Part shown: piece after piece, positions 7,382-64,000 of the stretch
Numbering within the stretch: position 1 is the stretch's first letter
Layout of the letters: each line of letters starts with the position of its first letter
DNA from: an uncultured Clostridia bacterium
GTDB lineage: Bacteria > Bacillota > Clostridia > Oscillospirales > Acutalibacteraceae
Reading direction: 5' to 3'
DNA: 64,000 bases
Assembly (NCBI GenBank): GCA_947625785.1
Contig: CANQPS010000014.1
Span: 11,241 to 75,240, forward strand
Program-made: the position numbers and the translations under genes
Notes under the pieces: model-generated
What the model was told of the DNA's origin: nothing
The model's database searches: none
Seen by the model: the letters and a program-made list of their open reading frames with translations, nothing else

Positions 7382-8341
7382 TTAAAATTCGGACTTTATA
7401 CTTCTTAAAAACAAATCAGCTATTGTTTTTTTAGCATCATAACCATTGTTTATAACATCATTCACAGCATTACATATAGGCAAATCTATATTATACATCT
7501 TGCTGAGTTTAACAACAGCTCTTGCAGTAGCAACTCCTTCCGCCAAACTATCGAATTTCTCACCTTTTACAAACATCTCTCCGAACATTCTGTTGTGACT
7601 GTATTTTGAAAACAAAGTTGCCTCATAATCCCCTAAATGTGCTAAACCATATGCAGAAATTTCATTTCCGCCAACGGCCTTAATAATTCTTGCAATTTCT
7701 CTCGTTCCTCTCGACATCAATGCACCTTTCAAACTTGTATATCCAAGGCCATCAAGAATACCGGCAGCTATTCCAATAACATTTTTAGTAGCAGCACCTA
7801 TTTCATTACCAATTAAATCAGTACCTATATAAAAACGAATAAGGTCACTCGATAAATTATAAACGAGATATTTTTTAGTTTCCTCGCACTTTGAGTCTAT
7901 AACCATACAATTAGGTATTCCGTTTGAAAAATCCTGCGGGTGTCCCGGTCCTACCCATATAGCAATCTTTGTATCATTTGGAACAAATTCTTCAACTACT
8001 TCGCTTAATCTCTTGCCTGTACTTTCCTCAATGCCCTTCATACATAAAACTATTATTTTTCCGCTTAAATCTTCTTTTGATAAATCTTTCATAAAGGAAC
8101 GCACTGCTTGTGAACTTATTGATATAACCAAAACTTCTGCTTGAGATACTGCTCTATGTAAATTATCAGTTACTTCAAGTTCTTCTCTAAATGTAAGAAT
8201 ATTATTTTTTCTTTCATTTTTTATTTCTATAAATTGTGGTGCGTCAGATAATCCCCACATTTTAACATTATGCCCTGTCTTATCCAAATACCAAGCTATA
8301 AAAGAACCCCATCTTCCACAACCTAAAACTGAAATATTCAA
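7382..8341 (-). CDS. gpsA: NAD(P)H-dependent glycerol-3-phosphate dehydrogenase
   Basis: It has an N-terminal Rossmann motif (VLGCGRWGSFIA) and GpsA-typical KNVIGIAAGILDGLG and EG...T motifs. Confidence 0.9.
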   Translation of the reverse strand: MNISVLGCGRWGSFIAWYLDKTGHNVKMWGLSDAPQFIEIKNERKNNILTFREELEVTDNLHRAVSQAEVLVISISSQAVRSFMKDLSKEDLSGKIIVLCMKGIEESTGKRLSEVVEEFVPNDTKIAIWVGPGHPQDFSNGIPNCMVIDSKCEETKKYLVYNLSSDLIRFYIGTDLIGNEIGAATKNVIGIAAGILDGLGYTSLKGALMSRGTREIARIIKAVGGNEISAYGLAHLGDYEATLFSKYSHNRMFGEMFVKGEKFDSLAEGVATARAVVKLSKMYNIDLPICNAVNDVINNGYDAKKTIADLFLRSIKSEF

Positions 8342-8534
8342 ATCATAACCCCCTATTTTTTAAAATTTAGTTACTATCGTATTATATCACATTACACTTT
8401 AAAAGTGAACTCTATGTCACACAAAATTAACATAATATAATACTGTTTTATGAATAAATATTCTAAGATATTGACTTATAACGAATAAAATGATAAAATC
8501 TATTTAAAATTATATTTTTATGGAGGAATGTTTA

Positions 8535-9140
8535 ATGGCTTATTGTAAAAATTGCGGTCAATTTATCTCTGATAATGATAAAGTTTGCAGTAATTGTGGT
8601 GTTTCTGTTCAGCCAACCCAATCATCATCAAACAAACAACAAACTAATCAATACCAACAGCAAAATTATCAACAGTATCAACAGCCTAATCAATATCAAC
8701 AACAATATAATTCATCTCAAAACGATATTTTAAATAAGGTTCTTAATACAAAAGATTGTACTAATGAATTTGACCAAAATGATATTAATGAAAATTGGGT
8801 ATTTGCTATATTTTCATACATAGGACTGCTTTTTCTTATTCCACTGTTGGCAAGGGGAAACTCGAAATTCTGTAAATTCCATATTAATCAGGGAGTTACG
8901 CTGTTTATAGCCGAATTGGCTATAACTGTTGTATTGACAATATTAAATTTAATTATCAGACTTATATTCGGACACGGGTTTTTAGTGGTCATTGAAGTTA
9001 TTTTATTAATTGTAGTTGATTTAGTTGGTGGTGTAATCGCCTTGGCTACATTAATCCTTGCAGTTATGGGTATTATTAATGTTGTCAAACATCAGGCTAA
9101 GGAACTTCCTTTGATTAGTAAATTTAAGATTTTAAAATAA
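8535..9140 (+). CDS. Membrane protein with an N-terminal zinc-ribbon, a Q-rich linker and a C-terminal multi-TM (DUF4870-like) domain
   Basis: It contains CKNCGQFISDNDKVCSNCG, a QQYQQ low-complexity stretch, then hydrophobic helices. A ggagga RBS lies 7 nt upstream of the ATG at 8535. Confidence 0.6.
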   Translation: MAYCKNCGQFISDNDKVCSNCGVSVQPTQSSSNKQQTNQYQQQNYQQYQQPNQYQQQYNSSQNDILNKVLNTKDCTNEFDQNDINENWVFAIFSYIGLLFLIPLLARGNSKFCKFHINQGVTLFIAELAITVVLTILNLIIRLIFGHGFLVVIEVILLIVVDLVGGVIALATLILAVMGIINVVKHQAKELPLISKFKILK

Positions 9141-32785: not shown

Positions 32786-32864
32786 TTCTTTTACCTCCTG
32801 ATTTTTATTTTATTATAACATATTTTTTAGAATTTTATAATTACGCCAAAGCATTTTAAAATAA

Positions 32865-32910
32865 AAAACACAAAGACCACAAAATAAAATTTGTGGTCTC
32901 TGTGTTTTTG
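32865..32910 (-). terminator. Bidirectional terminator downstream of the SipW/TasA-like operon
   Basis: A 17-bp stem AACACAAAGACCACAAA / TTGTGGTCTCTGTGTT is flanked by T-runs on both strands. Confidence 0.7.
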
Positions 32911-33065
32911 TGAAATTTATTTCATTTTTGAGAGCCAAACCAAGCCCCATATCTCGTACGCACAATCATAATTTGATAAATTATCTTTATTATTTGAATA
33001 CGATAATATACTCATAGATACAATTCCTATAAAAATATCCAAAATCATTCCTATTATAAACATTA

Positions 33066-34340
33066 TCATTCTATTTTATCACCTGTACTATTTAAATCTT
33101 CCTGTACTGCGATATCATTTGATATATTTATATTATTTTCTTCTATATCAGAATTACCGGATTGTGATTTATCTGTACTAATTTCTTCACTCTGTACATT
33201 ATTTTCTTCTTTATCTATAATATTATTTTCACCATTCTTTGTACTGCTTTCATCACTTATAATATTATCTTCTGAGATATTTTTATCATCTTCAATGTCA
33301 TTTTCGACACTTTCTATATTGCTTGTATCACTTGTAATATTATTTTCATCACTTGCCAAGTTATTTTTGTCATTTAAAATGTCATCTTTATTACTTGTGA
33401 TATTATCCTCTGGGATATTTTTATCATCTATAATGTCATTTTCGACACTTTCTATATTATTTGTATCACTTGTAATATTATTTTTATCACTTAACAAGTT
33501 ATTTTCGTTATATATATTATCATTATTATTACTTAATATATTATTTTCATTACTTACCAAGTTATTTTTGTTGCTTATATCAGCATTATTATTACTTAAT
33601 ATATTATTTTTGATACTATTAACATCAATTTTATATTCGCTGCCACTATATGATGCTGTACTAATTGCACTCTTCAAAACATCAATCGTTCCACCGTTTA
33701 GAACTCTATCTATGGTACTATGATCCTCTCTTATAACACCCCAGACAACTTCAAATGAAATTACAACATCTGTATCTATATCTGTACTTATGGTAATTGC
33801 ATAAGATTCACCAAAATTATCTGTGCGTTCCTTTGATATTACTTTTCCGGTTGCTGCGTCCGTAGCCGTTATTATACAGTAGCCTGTGCCTGTACCATTT
33901 CGAGTTAATGTTAAATTGTATTGCACTTTTGTGCCGTCTGTACTACTTATATTATAATCTCCTGACGTTTCTGCCTTTGCAATATAATCATCTTCTTTTG
34001 GTTCTTCTCCAATAAGCCCACTTTTTCTCAAAGCATCTAAATAGTCATCAAAACTACTATATGCCCCCGCCATACCAGCGTCGAATAGCTGCTTAGCCAT
34101 ACTGTATTTACTTGCATAATCTTTTGAAGCGTTATCATAAGAAGTCCGATCAAGCAACTTAAACCCCAAATCAAAGGAGGATGCTGTAATGGTTGAGGAG
34201 CCGGACAGACTATCAGTAAACCACGCAAATGTCAATCCCACTAAATAGACTATACACATTATACTTGCTATTATAGCAGGCAGTAACATATATATAATAT
34301 TTTTATAGGTGTAAAATTTTCGTCCAATTAACTTTTTCAA
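33066..34340 (-). CDS. Secreted protein with a SipW-cognate-type signal peptide, a TasA/camelysin-like N-domain and an N/D/I/S-rich C-terminal tail of 46-aa tandem repeats
   Basis: Its N-terminus, TM...GLTFAWFTDSLSGSSTITASSFDLG, matches the AWF(T/S)D...TFxxGTLDL class processed by SipW. The tail repeats NNITSDT(N/S)NIESVENDI...DDKNI. At DNA level, 33280-33372 and 33418-33509 are direct repeats with a 138-bp period. Confidence 0.7.
   Translation of the reverse strand: MKKLIGRKFYTYKNIIYMLLPAIIASIMCIVYLVGLTFAWFTDSLSGSSTITASSFDLGFKLLDRTSYDNASKDYASKYSMAKQLFDAGMAGAYSSFDDYLDALRKSGLIGEEPKEDDYIAKAETSGDYNISSTDGTKVQYNLTLTRNGTGTGYCIITATDAATGKVISKERTDNFGESYAITISTDIDTDVVISFEVVWGVIREDHSTIDRVLNGGTIDVLKSAISTASYSGSEYKIDVNSIKNNILSNNNADISNKNNLVSNENNILSNNNDNIYNENNLLSDKNNITSDTNNIESVENDIIDDKNIPEDNITSNKDDILNDKNNLASDENNITSDTSNIESVENDIEDDKNISEDNIISDESSTKNGENNIIDKEENNVQSEEISTDKSQSGNSDIEENNINISNDIAVQEDLNSTGDKIE
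33280..33509 (-). repeat. Intragenic tandem direct repeat, two ~92-bp copies with a 138-bp period (46 aa)
   Basis: Near-identical copies begin TTTTTATCATC(T/A)TCAATGTCATTTTCGACACTTTCTATATT at 33280 and 33418. Confidence 0.75.
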
Positions 34341-34371
34341 AACAATCTACCTCCGATTCTCTATATTTTGA

Positions 34372-34415
34372 GGCAATCAAAAGACATAAACAACTGCTTA
34401 TGTCCTTTGATTGCC
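34372..34415 (-). other. Intercistronic 18-bp-stem hairpin (GGCAATCAAAGGACATAA family) just upstream of the RBS of the 33066..34340 gene
   Basis: ggcaatcaaaagacataa-acaactgc-ttatgtcctttgattgcc gives 18 pairs including one G-U. A related element lies at 35376..35444. Confidence 0.6.
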
Positions 34416-34563
34416 ACCCACCCCATACGGATATATATGGGTATGGGTAGCGTTTTTAAAAGGTTTCCTATGAGCTAAACACTGGTTTTCGTCTTTTGAG
34501 TTTTAATTATCGAGGAGTTATCTTTTAGATTATGCGTTAAGTTATCTAAGGATTTAGGCATTA

Positions 34564-35169
34564 TTATGCTTCACCTGGATATTTTGCACCTAAATCGTAC
34601 TGATCATCGCCGAATGCATCACTATCACCAACATCCTGTTTTGCTAAAATATCAATGCCAAATTCAAACGTTTTATCTTGCAATTTGTTATCAGTAGCTT
34701 CATCATTATCAGTTTTCCATTTAAGAACAATGTACCTCTCAGCGGTACCATTATCCTTTGCTACTGAAGCTTCACCAACAGATCCATCAAATGTACTTAA
34801 TTCTTCCCAATCTTGTATCTCAGAAGCCGCATTAGGTTTAGTTTCAACAATTGCAATCTGCAATGCGTCTGCAAAACCATTAGTATCGCTGGTAGTGTCT
34901 ATATTAAATTTACATTTAGCATTAACATTACCCTCATTAGTTATAGTAACTTTTTTATATACTATTGCTCCCGGCTCAAATGTTTCTCCTGTCCAATCTG
35001 CGTCAAAATCTGCTTTTACCTGCAGTTTACCAGCAGTAATTGAATCTTGTTGTGTTGGAGCAGTATAAGTAAACCAAGCGTATGTAGAACCTACGAGCAT
35101 AGCACTGCATAATGACATTGAAATTATACCTGTTACAAGGGCTTTTTTAGTTGATTTAATATTTAACAT
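34564..35169 (-). CDS. TasA/CalY/camelysin-family secreted protein
   Basis: GSTYAWFTYTAPTQQDSITAGKLQV...FEPGAIVYKKVTITNEGNVNAKCKF aligns with the Bacillus CalY/TasA N-terminal region (GGTFAYFSD...TFAAGTLDL...LKPGDSVKKEF). Confidence 0.75.
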   Translation of the reverse strand: MLNIKSTKKALVTGIISMSLCSAMLVGSTYAWFTYTAPTQQDSITAGKLQVKADFDADWTGETFEPGAIVYKKVTITNEGNVNAKCKFNIDTTSDTNGFADALQIAIVETKPNAASEIQDWEELSTFDGSVGEASVAKDNGTAERYIVLKWKTDNDEATDNKLQDKTFEFGIDILAKQDVGDSDAFGDDQYDLGAKYPGEA

Positions 35170-35375
35170 TATTTACTCTTCTCCTTAATATAATAATTTG
35201 GTAAGCATTTTACTTTTTAAAAATACACTTCCCAAAATGCTTTCAAAATCAAAGCGTATTTTTAGGTCTGTCCTCTCCCCTGAGGACTAAACAAAGACGA
35301 CTAACAGATATTTACTCATTGCACCTCCCATTGCATATCTCTGATATGCAATTTTTAATATTGCCTTATTTTTTC

Positions 35376-35444
35376 GGCAATCAAAGGATATAAACAACCA
35401 TTCCTCAACTAAATATTTCGGGCTGTTTATACCCTTTGATTACC
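35376..35444 (-). other. Intercistronic long hairpin, a second copy of the GGCAATCAAAGGATATAAAC element with a 19/22-bp stem and 25-nt loop
   Basis: ggcaatcaaaggatataaacaa ... ctgtttataccctttgattacc. It shares its arm sequence with the element at 34372. Confidence 0.55.
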
Positions 35445-35473
35445 GCCCACAATCCTTGTGGGCATTATTGAGG

Positions 35474-36169
35474 CTATTGAGATTTGCTTTGGGATACATC
35501 TTCTTGTTTTTCCTGTTTCTCCTTTTTAAGCAATAACTCATCTAACATTTTTTGAGCTTCTGCCAACTGTTCACTGAGCTGCTGTTTTTCAGCATTAATC
35601 TGCTCCATCTGTTCTCTTTTATATTTTCTGAATAACACAACATTGCTTATTCCTTGTATAATAATCAATAGTAAAAACGGAACAAATATACAAATTATAT
35701 ATCCCGGTGTAGTTTTGAGAAATAAAAAGAATTTTCCAATTCCTGCAAATCTTATCTTATATTTTCCCATAACGAAATTATAATAAACAGGGTTTTCGTC
35801 ATCAGTATTAGTTGTTGTACCATATGTCACAAAACACGGCAAACCATCTTTATCCTTTGTTACCGAACGAATTTTATGGGTAATCACCTTGCCATAGCTG
35901 TCGTCAGGATTGGTCGACTGAAACGAAATTATATCGCCCTCCTGCAATGTCGAAGGGTCTACTTCTTTCGATAAAATTAAATCTCCTGCCTTGAAATCAG
36001 TAGCACTCATCGAATCCGACATTACCACAAATGCCTTATATCCAAAAATACTTCTATCCATTCTATTAAATGTCAACACTGATACCAGTGTAAATATCAT
36101 CATTATAGCTGCTATTCCAAAAATAACCCAACTTATTATATTTTTTATTTTAACCAAACCATTTTTCAT
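35474..36169 (-). CDS. sipW: Signal peptidase I, SipW-type (archaeal/ER-type S26B)
   Basis: It has an N-terminal TM, the catalytic region VVMSDSMSATDFKAGDLIL (Ser/His type, no Lys box) and a C-terminal TM plus a coiled-coil basic tail, as in B. subtilis SipW. Confidence 0.8.
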   Translation of the reverse strand: MKNGLVKIKNIISWVIFGIAAIMMIFTLVSVLTFNRMDRSIFGYKAFVVMSDSMSATDFKAGDLILSKEVDPSTLQEGDIISFQSTNPDDSYGKVITHKIRSVTKDKDGLPCFVTYGTTTNTDDENPVYYNFVMGKYKIRFAGIGKFFLFLKTTPGYIICIFVPFLLLIIIQGISNVVLFRKYKREQMEQINAEKQQLSEQLAEAQKMLDELLLKKEKQEKQEDVSQSKSQ

Positions 36170-36192
36170 AACAATAGTTCCTTTCCCTCAAA

Positions 36193-36732
36193 TTAATCGA
36201 ATAATTTGTCAGGATTATTCTTGGTTTGTACTGCCTGTGCGGCTATATCAAACGATATTGTTAGATTTTGTGCCTCGTTGCCTACTTCTTCCGGAAAATG
36301 TATCCTTATCTTTAAATATCTTTTCTCCTTTATCAATAACTCATCATCTGCCGCCGGTACATTCACTTTTGTTAGCTCCGATATTTTTCCGGAAAACAAT
36401 AATTTATCCTCATAAAAAATATCTGCGTCCAATATATCTGCAAGTTGTTCTCCTTTTATATTATCAAAATATACCCTGTAATAAACGTCCCAAGTGCTTT
36501 GGTTTTCTATAAAGAATTCTTTCTCTACCGTCATTCCCGGTTCAAATATATATTCCTGCTCATTTATAATTGCCTTTCCGTCATTGAGGTTAATTTTTAC
36601 CGTACCGGTCTGAAACAAATTATTTTCAACTGATACATCAGCATATACCAACGCAAAACTTGTTATGCAAAAGCAAATGGAAAGTATTAATATCGTGAAA
36701 ACACCTAACTGTAATTTTCTGATTATTTTCAT
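36193..36732 (-). CDS. TasA-like secreted protein with a non-canonical signal/cleavage region
   Basis: FALVYADVSVENNLFQTGTVKINLND...FEPGMTVEKEFFIENQS matches the TasA N-terminal NxF..GT.DL and (K/E)PGD..K.F...N.G motifs. The 4-nt overlap with the upstream gene suggests translational coupling. Confidence 0.65.
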   Translation of the reverse strand: MKIIRKLQLGVFTILILSICFCITSFALVYADVSVENNLFQTGTVKINLNDGKAIINEQEYIFEPGMTVEKEFFIENQSTWDVYYRVYFDNIKGEQLADILDADIFYEDKLLFSGKISELTKVNVPAADDELLIKEKRYLKIRIHFPEEVGNEAQNLTISFDIAAQAVQTKNNPDKLFD

Positions 36733-37511
36733 TTTATTATCCTCCTTCGCTCTTTTTTTGATAAAAGGATTATTAATAATAACATAGCACCTGACATTGC
36801 AACTAAAGCAACTAAAATCTTAATACTATTCTCGTCGCCCGTTTCAGGAGCATCTAAATTACCAATTTCTTCAACCCACCATCTGAAATCAGCAGAAAGT
36901 CCTTGTAATTGATAATCATTTCCCACACTTGTATCGAGGTAAACAGTGATTTCATAATATGCCTCGCTCACAACAGAACTATCAGTATCAATTTTGTAAT
37001 CAAGTGACTTTGGCATATCTTTCATAAGCCCGTCATAGAGGGCTTCACCTGTCGTTAAAAGTACTACTTTGCACTTTAATACTTCGGATAGTTTTTCATA
37101 GCCGTTTTTTATATCGGCGTGGTATCTTACTGTTACCGTATTATTATGAGAAACACGAACACAATAATATTTCGTTATCTTATCACCCGGAAACATATTC
37201 TCTACTTGAAATGGTGAATTATCACTTTCACTTTTACTATGTAAATATAATACATCGGCATTTACCTGTGACTGATTATTTACAGGTGCAGCAAAACTAA
37301 TAGAATTTTCAACAATATTTTCTTGTTCACTATCTTGATTACTAAATTTTTCGGATATATAATCCGATTTGGCAGAAACAAGATTACTTGGAACAACTGT
37401 TGTTTTTTCCTTTGATGTATTAAAGTGATTATATAATGGTATTGCACTCAAAGAAAAAATACTAATTATCAAAAAAATCGACAGAATAATAGTTTTTATT
37501 CTTTTTTTCAT
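36729..37511 (-). CDS. TasA-domain protein with a C-terminal sortase-type sorting signal (APETG, TM helix, KKERRR tail). A possible cell-wall anchor, or TapA analogue, for the fibres.
   Basis: It has a signal peptide and a central ENMFPGDKITKYYCVRVSHNNTV TasA-like motif. The C-terminus reads LDAPETGDENSIKILVALVAMSGAMLLLIILLSKKERRRIIK. A strong RBS aggagg is present. Confidence 0.6.
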   Translation of the reverse strand: MKKRIKTIILSIFLIISIFSLSAIPLYNHFNTSKEKTTVVPSNLVSAKSDYISEKFSNQDSEQENIVENSISFAAPVNNQSQVNADVLYLHSKSESDNSPFQVENMFPGDKITKYYCVRVSHNNTVTVRYHADIKNGYEKLSEVLKCKVVLLTTGEALYDGLMKDMPKSLDYKIDTDSSVVSEAYYEITVYLDTSVGNDYQLQGLSADFRWWVEEIGNLDAPETGDENSIKILVALVAMSGAMLLLIILLSKKERRRIIK

Positions 37512-37547: not shown

Positions 37548-37740
37548 TAGAGTTATTTACTCTAATAAAACTATTATAGCATTATTTACTCTAAATGTCA
37601 ACAGTTTATTTAAAAATATTTCTATTACAATATTTTAGTTTTTAAGACTACTTTTGTTATTAGAGTTATTTATTCTGACAACACTATTATAGCGTCATAT
37701 TCTCTAATTGTCAATACCATTTTAAAAAATATTTTTAATC
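37548..37740. promoter_or_regulatory. Two ~80-bp imperfect direct repeats, each starting with a TAGAGT-N5-ACTCTA palindrome, upstream of the SipW/TasA-like operon
   Basis: Copy A at 37548 and copy B at 37661 are 113 bp apart and about 75% identical. The palindrome TAGAGTTATTTACTCTA is perfect in A and degenerate in B. A second half-site TTATTTACTCTAAAT lies within A. Confidence 0.6.
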
Positions 37741-62328: not shown

Positions 62329-63051
62329 CTATTTACTGGGATTTTCGGGGGCTTTGAGTGAAACTGTATATAATGTATTGTACTTCTTGAAAGTGCGCCA
62401 AGTCATATCGTCCCATTTTCTAAGCTGCGCCCAAAGTTCGGGAAAATCCGAATAGAGAGTCCGCAGTTCACCAAACAGCTGTAAAGGACAGCACCAACAG
62501 GATACCCTCCCAAACTTATCATACAGACCGCCCCAATCGTAGCCGCGCTCCTTGCAGTAAGCAAGACAGTCAGCCTCAGTCATGCCCCATTCCACAAGCG
62601 GCAGACGAACGTTCGGTCGGCTGTTGCAATGGCGTGTGACACGTTCCGTTTCATCGGCGGCGATCCCGACATACTCGACAAGGTCGTATTCATCGTTCAG
62701 TTTACGCAGATATTTCTCACGAGGTACGGTCTTGAGAAGATTGGTACACCACCGCATCAGCGGTCCTGCCCAACTGTATCCGAGTTTGCCTTGAAGTTCG
62801 GGTTTCTTTCGCTTGATAGGTTTTTCGGAAAACAGATACTCAAAGGTGTACTCGCTGCGTACTGTCGTAACTTTAATTCCCGTGTTTTTCTCGACTTTTC
62901 GGATATGCCCATAAAGCTGAGGGAACTCAGGCCCGGTATCGCAGAAAAGAACTATATCCACAGGCATATTTTCTTCAAGCATACGGAGCAGCATTGCCGT
63001 TGAATCCTTGCCGCCGCTGAGTGAAACAACATGAAGTGCGGGTTTACTCAT
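62329..63051 (-). CDS. Phosphoadenosine-phosphosulfate reductase family protein (PP-loop ATPase, phage-type)
   Basis: It has the SGGKDS PP-loop (VVSLSGGKDSTAML) and a C-terminal cysteine cluster CWCC. Confidence 0.75.
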   Translation of the reverse strand: MSKPALHVVSLSGGKDSTAMLLRMLEENMPVDIVLFCDTGPEFPQLYGHIRKVEKNTGIKVTTVRSEYTFEYLFSEKPIKRKKPELQGKLGYSWAGPLMRWCTNLLKTVPREKYLRKLNDEYDLVEYVGIAADETERVTRHCNSRPNVRLPLVEWGMTEADCLAYCKERGYDWGGLYDKFGRVSCWCCPLQLFGELRTLYSDFPELWAQLRKWDDMTWRTFKKYNTLYTVSLKAPENPSK

Positions 63052-64000
63052 TGCCCTCCACCTCTTTCACAAGTTCGGAGTAGGGTATCTTCTCACCGTT
63101 CCGCACCACATACACACCATCCGCATTTCCCGTATCCTCAACATACCTGTGCAGGATTACAGACGCATATTTTTCGTCAAGTTCCATCGTGTAACAAATG
63201 CGGTTCGTATGCTCACAGGTCATGAGCGTTGAACCACTGCCACCAAAGGTATCAATGACGATTGCATTTTCCTGACTTGAATTTCCAATCGGATAAGCAA
63301 GCAGGTCAAGTGGCTTTGAAGTCGGATGGTTCTTATTCTTCTTCGGCTTATCGAAATTCCAGATGGTAGTCTGACTTCTGCCTGCATTCTTGCTCCAGTA
63401 GTGCTTTCCATTTTGTAAAAAGCCATAAAGGACTGGTTCATGCTGCCATTGATAGTCGGAGCGTCCGAGCACCAGACTATCTTTCACCCAGATACAGCAG
63501 CCTGCGAGGTGAAAGCCTGCGTCAATGAATGCCTTGTGGAAGTTAAGTCCCTCGGTGTCAGCGTGAAACACATAAGCCGAGCCGCCTTTTTCGAGGTGAT
63601 CAGACATATTCTTAAATGCCGAAAGCAGGAAGTTGTAAAATTCCTCGCCCTTGATTGAATCATTCTGTATTTTTAAGCCGCTCGAAGATGTGAACGAAAC
63701 TCCGTAAGGCGGATCCGTAAGAATGAGATTTGCTTTGACATCTCCCATAAGAGCGGAAACATCATCTGCGCTTGTGGCGTCGCCGCACATCAGCTTGTGT
63801 CTGCCGACCGTCCAGATATCACCACGCATAACAAAAGCCGCCTTTTCCAAAGCGGCTGACAGGTCGTAATCATCATCTTTCGCATCGCTGTCGGTATCGC
63901 TGCCGAACAGGTCCGCAAGTTCTTTTTCGTCAAACCCCGTAAGCGAAACATCAAAATCCTCTCCTTGCAGGGATTCTATCTCCACTCGCAGAAGTTCTTC
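63044..64000 (-). CDS. DNA methyltransferase (N6-A/N4-C, DPPY class), probably with an N-terminal ParB-like domain. The 5' end lies beyond the window.
   Basis: It has ILTDPPYGV motif IV and FxGSGST motif I (DTFGGSGST). The linker LTGFDEKELADL is typical of ParB-methylase fusions. The frame is open to the window edge. Confidence 0.75.
   Translation of the reverse strand, partial: EELLRVEIESLQGEDFDVSLTGFDEKELADLFGSDTDSDAKDDDYDLSAALEKAAFVMRGDIWTVGRHKLMCGDATSADDVSALMGDVKANLILTDPPYGVSFTSSSGLKIQNDSIKGEEFYNFLLSAFKNMSDHLEKGGSAYVFHADTEGLNFHKAFIDAGFHLAGCCIWVKDSLVLGRSDYQWQHEPVLYGFLQNGKHYWSKNAGRSQTTIWNFDKPKKNKNHPTSKPLDLLAYPIGNSSQENAIVIDTFGGSGSTLMTCEHTNRICYTMELDEKYASVILHRYVEDTGNADGVYVVRNGEKIPYSELVKEVEGNE

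Follow-up and report, generated by a model that had tools for sequence, protein, structure and literature searches.

A predicted SipW-processed, TasA-like surface-fibre operon with a sorting-signal-bearing first subunit in an uncultured Acutalibacteraceae bacterium

Our analysis of a 64-kb stretch of DNA from an uncultured Clostridia bacterium of the family Acutalibacteraceae (contig CANQPS010000014.1; the whole stretch is called the window below, and coordinates are those of the window unless a related locus is named) concerns an operon of five genes, g1 to g5, on the minus strand at 33066-37511. On balance, we think it probable that this operon builds a cell-surface fibre of the TasA superfamily, with SipW-type processing of its subunits and a base fixed by a sortase. 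The reading draws on the gene content of the operon, the family memberships of its products, the conservation of a sorting signal in the first of them, the synteny of the locus among relatives, and the allelic hypervariability of g4 and of the g5 core. An earlier note, made from the sequence alone, had placed five genes here, and the open reading frames (ORFs) of the window confirm them as co-directional on the minus strand (Table 1).

The third gene encodes the putative processing enzyme. Its product scores 73.1 bits on TIGR02228 (cut-off 51.85), shows SDSMS and THKI motifs, matches the general S26 Pfam model weakly (16.8 bits against 22.9), and falls well short of the Bacillus SipW equivalog model NF046067 (73.7 against 190 bits). 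Judged by these motifs and scores, g3 is the same type of enzyme as Bacillus subtilis SipW and not its orthologue; the SipW-type peptidase that the earlier note saw in mid-operon is borne out, and the standard LepB it named as the alternative is not. Two of the neighbouring products belong to Pfam family PF12389 (Peptidase_M73; gathering threshold 22.5 bits), g4 with 36.7 bits and g2 with 31.6, and the cores of the two are clearly homologous when compared as signal-free profiles (hhalign probability 96%, E 5e-9). On the BsaA model TIGR04090, with its cut-off of 60 bits, g4 reaches 29.8 and is therefore not a BsaA member, and g2 reaches 15.8; there is no equivalog-level match to TasA (16 bits against 450). 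The signal of g4 reads YAWFTY, and that of g2, a gene present in 81 of 85 loci, has the degenerate FALVYAD at the aligned position. The g4-like proteins of relatives, 350-950 aa long, consist of a TasA-like domain with C-terminal extensions, whereas g4 of the window is the bare domain. Some of these extensions (e.g., L004 12291-13643 and L054 12408-14603) match GLUG motifs or right-handed beta-helices, which suggests adhesin-like passenger domains shown along the fibre or at its end.

The first gene may connect this system to sortases. The g1 product begins with a signal or anchor helix and a short conserved strand (TTVVPSNLV); a disordered linker then leads to a beta-sandwich core, after which come the motif APETG, a transmembrane (TM) helix and KKERRR. 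The layout agrees with the AlphaFold2 (AF2) model (pLDDT 78.6), and in the family alignment the strand has the consensus VTVPDNIIT and the linker is variable. The C terminus reads ...LDAPETG-DENSIKILVALVAMSGAMLLLIILLS-KKERRRIIK, with a hydrophobic stretch of 23 residues. No AWFT-like motif occurs in g1; in the family consensus, ALA-G closes the N-terminal hydrophobic helix, which looks like a general signal-peptidase site. The family has 1611 detectable members, and among the 120 best of these, 110 carry xPxTG before a hydrophobic helix and a basic tail. The form (S/P)PxTG accounts for 88 of the 120, most commonly as SPQTG, PPKTG, PPQTG or SPKTG, and the motif is usually followed by D, then by the helix and K/R-rich residues. 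Clostridioides difficile SrtB cleaves a (S/P)PxTG motif (PMC4155245). The tripartite layout of a sortase substrate, already recognised in the earlier note, is thus supported for g1 at the level of primary sequence and is conserved across a large family, and the retention of xPxTG among homologues is a strong argument for sortase processing.

Is the protein that carries this signal itself part of a fibre? Compared as signal-free profiles, the g1 core matches the g2 core over 65 columns (hhalign probability 81%, E 1.2e-5) and the g4 core with a probability of 32%. A Foldseek search with the AF2 model ranks TasA (5of2) second (E 4e-4, TM 0.48, 190 columns). A Pfam scan of g1 yielded a sub-threshold LPXTG match and no match to Peptidase_M73, and the family profile found nothing meaningful among PDB sequences. 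This moderate evidence from profiles and a model makes the g1 core probably a divergent TasA-superfamily domain. The source annotation of one homologue, P0024, reads 'Spore coat-associated protein N, biofilm matrix'.

Several observations weigh against a sortase-fixed base. Neither the 64-kb window nor the ~10 kb past its left end encodes a sortase, the right end having been followed only onto short contigs, and with no sortase found around the operon we can only infer the anchoring step. On the two LPXTG models searched, TIGR01167 and PF00746, g1 stays below both cut-offs, its two scores being 13.9 against 15.9 and 16.1 against 20. APETG is rare, occurring in one of the 120 best homologues, with seven others having A at the first position, and C. 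difficile SrtB does not cleave LPETG in vitro (PMC4155245). Moreover, the BsaA polymers of Clostridium perfringens strain 13 are membrane-associated and not wall-linked, and srtB is dispensable for their polymerisation (PMC7395162, PMC11580942). These points nourish a different explanation, in which the operon would produce a released TasA/BsaA-like matrix fibre that is not wall-anchored, with g1 as a co-transcribed ordinary tethered surface protein or as a membrane nucleator that escapes sortase processing; BsaA polymers, which are mostly extracellular or membrane-associated and do not need srtB, would be its precedent, and the missing sortase, the low LPXTG scores and the atypical APETG all accord with it. 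We nevertheless regard a released fibre as unlikely. A plain membrane anchor has no need of the xPxTG kept right before the helix in so many homologues, the g1 core is related to that of g2, and g1 is always the first gene, coupled in translation to a TasA-like subunit, as its 4-nt overlap with g2 (ATGA) suggests. Sortases of the TLSTC type, confirmed by Pfam, lie within 10 kb of the operon in four related loci (L028, L034, L039 and L076). A six-frame scan of the window for TLxTC had a sole match, at 63229, which Pfam identifies as an N6/N4 DNA methylase and not a sortase.

At the other end of the operon, g5 combines an AWFT signal (FAWFTDS), one TasA-like strand, a helical insert with a small beta domain (~33690-34152, variable among strains) and a tail rich in N, D, I and S. 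The tail contains the 46-aa tandem repeats described in the earlier note, a 138-nt unit in 2.2 copies with 85% match (33247-33544), itself composed of 21-nt sub-repeats. Gene callers elsewhere place the start at an ATG at 34289, giving 407 aa. No Pfam family matches g5; its only match is a sub-threshold SipW-cognate signal (TIGR04088, 14.7 bits against a cut-off of 19), and its close relatives number two in 5.8 billion clusters. It does match g5x, a family of last genes with one member per locus, drawn from 39 loci (E 4.8e-8, profile without signal peptides). In g5x proteins, an AWFT signal is combined with a ~96-aa domain bearing the motif tGYC...WG and with a C-terminal tail that spans 16-205 aa, is of low complexity and usually abounds in T, P, A, E and S; by composition, the repeat tail of the window g5 looks like a low-GC version of this tail. 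The g5x profile has no similarity to the cores of g1, g2 and g4 (hhalign probability <1%), and g5 shares with the other subunits only the signal and the first strand (TITASSFDLGF in g5, SITAGKLQVKA in g4). These comparisons used signal-free core alignments and hhalign, which replaced an iterative HMM seeded with signal peptides that had drifted over all TasA-like families and was discarded.

The claim in the earlier note that all four non-peptidase products are TasA/camelysin-like accordingly stands for g2 and g4, has moderate backing for g1, and fails for the mature domain of g5. Likewise, the AWFT(D/Y) signature that it assigned to all four is found in g4 and g5, is degenerate in g2 and is missing from g1, and the PGxxVxK signature is found in g1, g2 and g4 and not in g5. 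Of the profile searches it suggested, those for the S26B peptidase (here with TIGR02228) and, for g2 and g4, Peptidase_M73 gave scores above cut-off, and those for the LPXTG anchor and TIGR04088 gave scores below. It had also placed g1 in a TapA-like role, for which the layout of g5 is the better fit. TapA is a complete small fold with an N-terminal donor strand, unrelated to the subunits it serves and followed by a disordered tail, and acts as an initiator (PMC10151520). With its SipW-type signal, donor-type strand, unrelated small domain and predicted disordered tail, g5 looks more like a TapA analogue than g1 does. No sequence model matches g5, and in an AF2 prediction of residues 1-230 from two sequences (pLDDT 53.5) the helical insert alone is confident, so that the model is too poor to bear on the fold.

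A further line of evidence comes from contigs of three strains (L088, L089 and L091) that belong to the same species as the window. Over the operon and its flanks, the four strains are 98-100% identical; the exceptions are two cassettes with sharp borders, one being the mature part of g4 (~35070-34528) and the other the core of g5 (~34152-33690). Four alleles of g4 exist, ~50% identical in amino-acid sequence; residues 1-34 do not differ among them, I-x-A-G-x-L-x-V is found in all of them, and the beta-strand skeleton is conserved. Across all six pairs, the mature part of g4 has dN 0.38-0.54 and dS 0.18-0.37 (dN/dS 1.5-2.7). The g5 core occurs as two alleles, and between the window and L088 and L089 its dN is 0.27-0.30 and its dS 0.11-0.13 (dN/dS ~2.4). 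The corresponding values for g1, g2 and g3 are dN ~0.002 and dS 0.02-0.07 (dN/dS ~0.05-0.1). These contrasts are in keeping with diversifying selection on an exposed shaft and tip, beside a conserved base and machinery, and diversifying selection on g4 indirectly supports surface exposure. The repeat tail of g5 is not the variable stalk imagined in the earlier note; its sequence is near-invariant and its repeat number equal in three strains, and it is the core that varies. Compositional saturation was rejected as the cause of dN/dS above 1, the saturated pS calculated from the genome's codon usage lying far above the observed 0.16-0.29. Mutagenesis of g4 by a diversity-generating retroelement was likewise rejected, given ~500 nt of divergence that includes indels and no nearby g4 copy as template, and a tblastn search with all g4 alleles revealed no silent pilS-like cassettes in the window.

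The divergence of g4 and g5 could also be read as the import of cassettes from other lineages by recombination, under relaxed constraint and devoid of functional meaning, into an operon that is decaying in this lineage. The sharp boundaries between identical and divergent DNA do suggest recombination, the window g4 is the shortest of its kind at 201 aa against 350-950 aa, and three accessory genes common in relatives, those for a recombinase, a TetR-family protein and a small 4-Cys protein, are absent from the window. Yet neutral decay predicts a dN/dS of about 1 together with frameshifts, and what is observed is dN above dS in six of six pairs, with all reading frames intact in the four strains, the motifs and strand skeleton of g4 kept in each allele, strong purifying selection on g1 to g3, and promoters of perfect consensus. 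We consider decay improbable. A third explanation, that the Peptidase_M73 members are secreted camelysin-type metalloproteases and the operon a protease or maturation locus, has little beyond the Pfam name 'Camelysin metallo-endopeptidase' in its favour and is very improbable, in that g4 contains no histidine, which by sequence alone excludes metalloprotease function for it, g2 has one histidine and no HExxH, TasA-family members of solved structure are fibre subunits (5of2; PMC9674648; PMC10151520), and a beta-strand skeleton that stays conserved amid hypervariability is in keeping with a structural surface antigen.

In conjunction with these analyses, we propose the following model for a SipW-processed fibre with a sortase-fixed base. 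Transcription would start from two strong tandem promoters upstream of g1, and stem-loops flanking g4 would raise the level of the g4 message, for which the RNase Y control of the C. perfringens bsa transcript (cited in PMC11580942) is a loose precedent. By analogy with B. subtilis and C. perfringens, g3 would process g4 and g5 at their AWFT-type signals and probably also g2, whose signal is degenerate. The g4 product may form a shaft of beta-sandwich subunits that polymerise by N-terminal donor-strand exchange, as does its homologue TasA (PMC9674648, PMC10151520); apart from these precedents, donor-strand exchange draws support from the I-x-A-G-x-L-x-V motif shared by the g4 alleles. To judge from its layout, g5 would act as a TapA-like initiator or tip, filling the first free groove, its acidic tail pointing outward. 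The g2 product could be an adaptor joining the shaft to g1, and g1 a basal subunit that takes the last strand and is linked covalently to peptidoglycan by a clostridial SrtB-like sortase encoded elsewhere in the genome. Donor-strand exchange, the order of subunits and the role of g5 are argued by analogy, which counts against the model.

How does this arrangement relate to known systems? As in the B. subtilis tapA-sipW-tasA and B. cereus sipW-tasA-calY loci, a dedicated SipW-type peptidase sits amid TasA/camelysin subunits with AWFT-like signals. Unlike in Bacillus, the gene order differs, the window has in addition a sortase-signal-bearing TasA-like g1 and an invariant adaptor g2, and its proteins miss the TasA and Bacillus SipW equivalog models by the margins given above; the B. 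cereus system is described as sortase-independent in the abstract of PMC13082335. Closer at hand is the srtB/sipW-bsaA-bsaB-bsaC locus of C. perfringens, a clostridial operon of SipW and TasA-like genes. In most strains of that species, sipW-bsaA has as neighbours srtB and a bsaB-like gene that carries an LPXTG motif (PMC11580942). There, however, sipW comes first, whereas the window has the anchor gene first and SipW mid-operon, and it lacks both a von Willebrand factor A (vWA) protein (BsaC) and an adjacent sortase. According to a 2026 preprint (bioRxiv 10.64898/2026.01.04.697558), bacterial AbpX/TasA-superfamily loci often come with LPXTG anchors and sortases, and also with S-layer homology (SLH) anchors, and AlphaFold3 predicts the LPXTG anchor in donor-strand complexes with the AbpX fibril subunit. 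Those loci resemble the window operon in having a donor-strand fibre subunit, minor subunits, a tip protein, a dedicated type I signal peptidase and an LPXTG anchor. They differ in that the AbpX peptidase has ten TM helices, whereas g3 is SipW-type, its catalytic region bounded on either side by a single hydrophobic segment, and in that the window subunits match Peptidase_M73; the passages of the preprint consulted here do not describe the g1 family. With regard to the sorting signal, the C. difficile SrtB substrates, with SPKTGD, PPKTG or SPQTG plus D, a helix and a basic tail, mirror the g1 family consensus, but they are adhesins and hydrolases and not TasA-like, and the window g1 has APETG (PMC4155245).

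The combination of SipW, TasA-like subunits and an LPXTG anchor is therefore an already known, predicted arrangement, one that the cited literature does not demonstrate experimentally, and the novelty that the earlier note saw in the joining of SipW signals and a sorting signal in one operon falls to C. perfringens (PMC11580942) and to the AbpX loci of the preprint. What is new is this particular family, comprising g1 and g2 as paired base subunits and g5x as the putative tip proteins, together with the breadth of its distribution, the clostridial SrtB-type motif, the selection pattern on g4, and a genetic switch in relatives of the window. TasA-type fibres are known mainly as released scaffolds of the Bacillus biofilm matrix, with cell attachment understood only via non-covalent TapA. 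If our reading is correct, a TasA-like base with a sortase signal in gut Clostridia would join SipW-dependent donor-strand fibres with sortase anchoring, the two main Gram-positive routes of surface assembly.

The operon is widespread. When one genome per species was scanned, 187 proved to contain relatives, and the comparison of loci proposed in the earlier note was carried out on 80 loci retrieved from among these 187 genomes. Nearly all are labelled as Oscillospirales-type Clostridia, every locus inspected stems from Clostridia of gut or rumen type, and they include those of the cultured Yeguia hominis NSJ-40 and Merdimmobilis hominis An559. The 80 have a recurring order in common: g1-g2-(small 4-Cys protein)-SipW-(one to five g4-like genes)-g5-like. 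Members of the g1 family with a source name come from Acutalibacteraceae metagenome-assembled genomes and from one contig labelled Caudoviricetes (P0024), a label probably due to the adjacent tyrosine recombinase, which makes contigs look viral.

Such a recombinase, ~370 aa long and matching Pfam Phage_integrase, is encoded just upstream of g1 in about 28 of the 85 loci, often with a TetR-family gene between. The recombinase gene is enclosed by inverted repeats of 22-30 nt, 1.43-1.53 kb apart, with the core TTTCGCAGAGT-N4-AACTCTG. Within the segment, at the end distant from the 3' end of the recombinase gene, is an outward-facing promoter (TTGATT-17-TGnTATAAT, with the variants TTGCAT and TATACT). 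The segment is found in both orientations among genomes; between L034 and L039 (Y. hominis), both flanks are collinear and the inversion lies exactly between the repeats. Where the recombinase is co-directional with the operon, the promoter faces away from it, and where the segment is inverted (L047 and L078), the promoter points into the operon. In the Hin/hix system of Salmonella, a promoter segment is inverted by a serine invertase. The segment of relatives resembles it as a ~1.5-kb stretch between inverted repeats, with a recombinase gene of its own and an outward-facing promoter that drives a surface-structure operon in just one of the two orientations, and differs in that the recombinase is a tyrosine recombinase and that the switch is missing from the window, where no recombinase is encoded. 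To judge by its sequence organisation, the fibre operon of relatives has in this segment what looks like a phase-variation switch, Hin-like but based on a tyrosine recombinase.

Taken together, these features could describe a Gram-positive pilus of an as yet uncharacterised class that occurs in at least 187 species genomes and is widespread among Oscillospirales-type Clostridia of the gut, with a non-covalent, SipW-processed donor-strand shaft that diversifies, a TapA-like tip, a sortase-fixed TasA-like base and, in many species, a Hin-like promoter switch operated by a tyrosine recombinase. We offer this joint reading tentatively, at somewhat less than even confidence. If true, it would have the hallmarks of a colonisation organelle of commensals exposed to immunity or phages; the hypervariability of the shaft between strains and the invertible promoter of relatives suggest recognition of the structure by phages or by the immune system of the host. 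For the gut microbiota, the fibre is a candidate factor of colonisation and a candidate strain marker, and Y. hominis NSJ-40, which is cultured and whose retrieved locus holds the operon, the switch and a nearby sortase, offers a setting in which our model is open to experiment.

Two further elements recur in the related loci. A 72-81-aa zinc-ribbon-like 4-Cys protein (CxCC...CGQLCxxC) without a Pfam match is encoded between g2 and SipW in 24 loci (e.g., L054 11416-11640, L077 11271-11495 and L009 11377-11622) and is absent from the window. In 10 loci, a module of a TM segment plus a basic helix (…YRYWRRELRCLYLCLIPF…) occurs either as a separate 72-aa ORF after SipW, as in L009 (12342-12560), or as an in-frame fusion upstream of the g5-like signal, as in the N-terminal extensions of the g5-like ORFs of L034, L054 and L077.

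Table 1. Features of the operon in the window and recombinase segments of related loci
Feature	Sequence	Position	Strand	Details
g1, putative sortase-anchored base subunit	window	36729-37511	-	260 aa
g2, conserved TasA-like minor/adaptor subunit (putative)	window	36193-36732	-	179 aa
g3, SipW/ER-archaeal-type (S26B) signal peptidase I by sequence	window	35474-36169	-	231 aa; C-terminal coiled-coil tail
g4, minimal TasA-like putative major subunit	window	34564-35169	-	201 aa; mature part ~34528-35070 is the hypervariable cassette
g5, TapA-like terminal protein (putative)	window	33066-34340	-	424 aa from TTG preceded by GGAGG
Promoter P1, sigma-70-type	window	37714-37686	-	upstream of g1; in ~110-nt direct duplication
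Promoter P2, sigma-70-type	window	37601-37573	-	upstream of g1; in ~110-nt direct duplication
Palindrome TAGAGTAAATAACTCTA	window	37549-37563	-	right 3' of a -10 box
Palindrome CAGAATAAATAACTCTA	window	37662-37676	-	right 3' of a -10 box
Double stem-loop, copy 1	window	35376-35463	-	directly after g3 stop codon; no U-tract; predicted -47.5 kcal/mol, z = -10.8
Double stem-loop, copy 2	window	34372-34448	-	downstream of g4; no U-tract; predicted -47.7 kcal/mol, z = -8.3
Intrinsic terminator ending the operon	window	32864-32909	-	20-bp stem and U-run; -28.2 kcal/mol, z = -9.8
Putative small ORF	window	32917-33069	-	50 aa, hydrophobic; overlaps g5 stop (ATGA)
Recombinase segment	L034	6070-7561
Recombinase segment	L054	7720-9312
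Recombinase segment	L077	8266-9793
Recombinase segment	L028	7717-9205
Recombinase segment	L063	7725-9204
Recombinase segment	L047	8124-9628
Recombinase segment	L078	7681-9170
Recombinase segment	L039	~7624-9124

The two promoters of the window operon each match TTGACA-17-TATAAT at 12 of 12 positions, and their region (37573-37714) is 95-100% identical to that of the sister strains. The palindromes TAGAGTAAATAACTCTA and CAGAATAAATAACTCTA beside their -10 boxes resemble the AGAGT-N4-AACTCT core of the inverted repeats around the recombinase in relatives, a likeness of weak statistical support, the same match count having been reached in 3 of 100 shuffles. On sequence grounds, the palindromes may be an operator for a repressor or a locked-ON relic of the recombination switch of relatives. 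A half-site of the repeat core is also present within the spacer of each window promoter (37549-37714).

Between g3 and g4 lie 304 nt and between g4 and g5 223 nt, each gap containing one copy of the double stem-loop. The family has only these two copies in the whole 64 kb, bracketing g4, and both are 100% conserved across the four strains. An Rfam scan of the operon produced no credible match for the intergenic hairpins, which, from their predicted folds and placement, may serve to process or stabilise the mRNA and thereby set the stoichiometry of the subunits. The small ORF at the end of the operon is shortened to 40 aa in the sister strains by a TGG-to-TGA change, and its status as a gene is uncertain.

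The operon is flanked by a divergently transcribed cyclophilin gene on one side and a gene for a metallo-beta-lactamase-fold (RNase Z-like) protein on the other, and its wider surroundings consist of housekeeping genes such as pgk, tpi and gpmI. Parts of the stretches at 46-48 kb and 62-64 kb are raised in GC content, to 0.43-0.46. The right end of the window (62329-63985, also in L094) looks like a mobile element, with genes for ParB-N/DNA methylase, PAPS-reductase-like, HNH and sigma-70 r4 proteins, and a similarly mobile-element-like region beyond the left end (L092 14892-19168) encodes a split tyrosine integrase, HicAB and a helix-turn-helix (HTH) protein.

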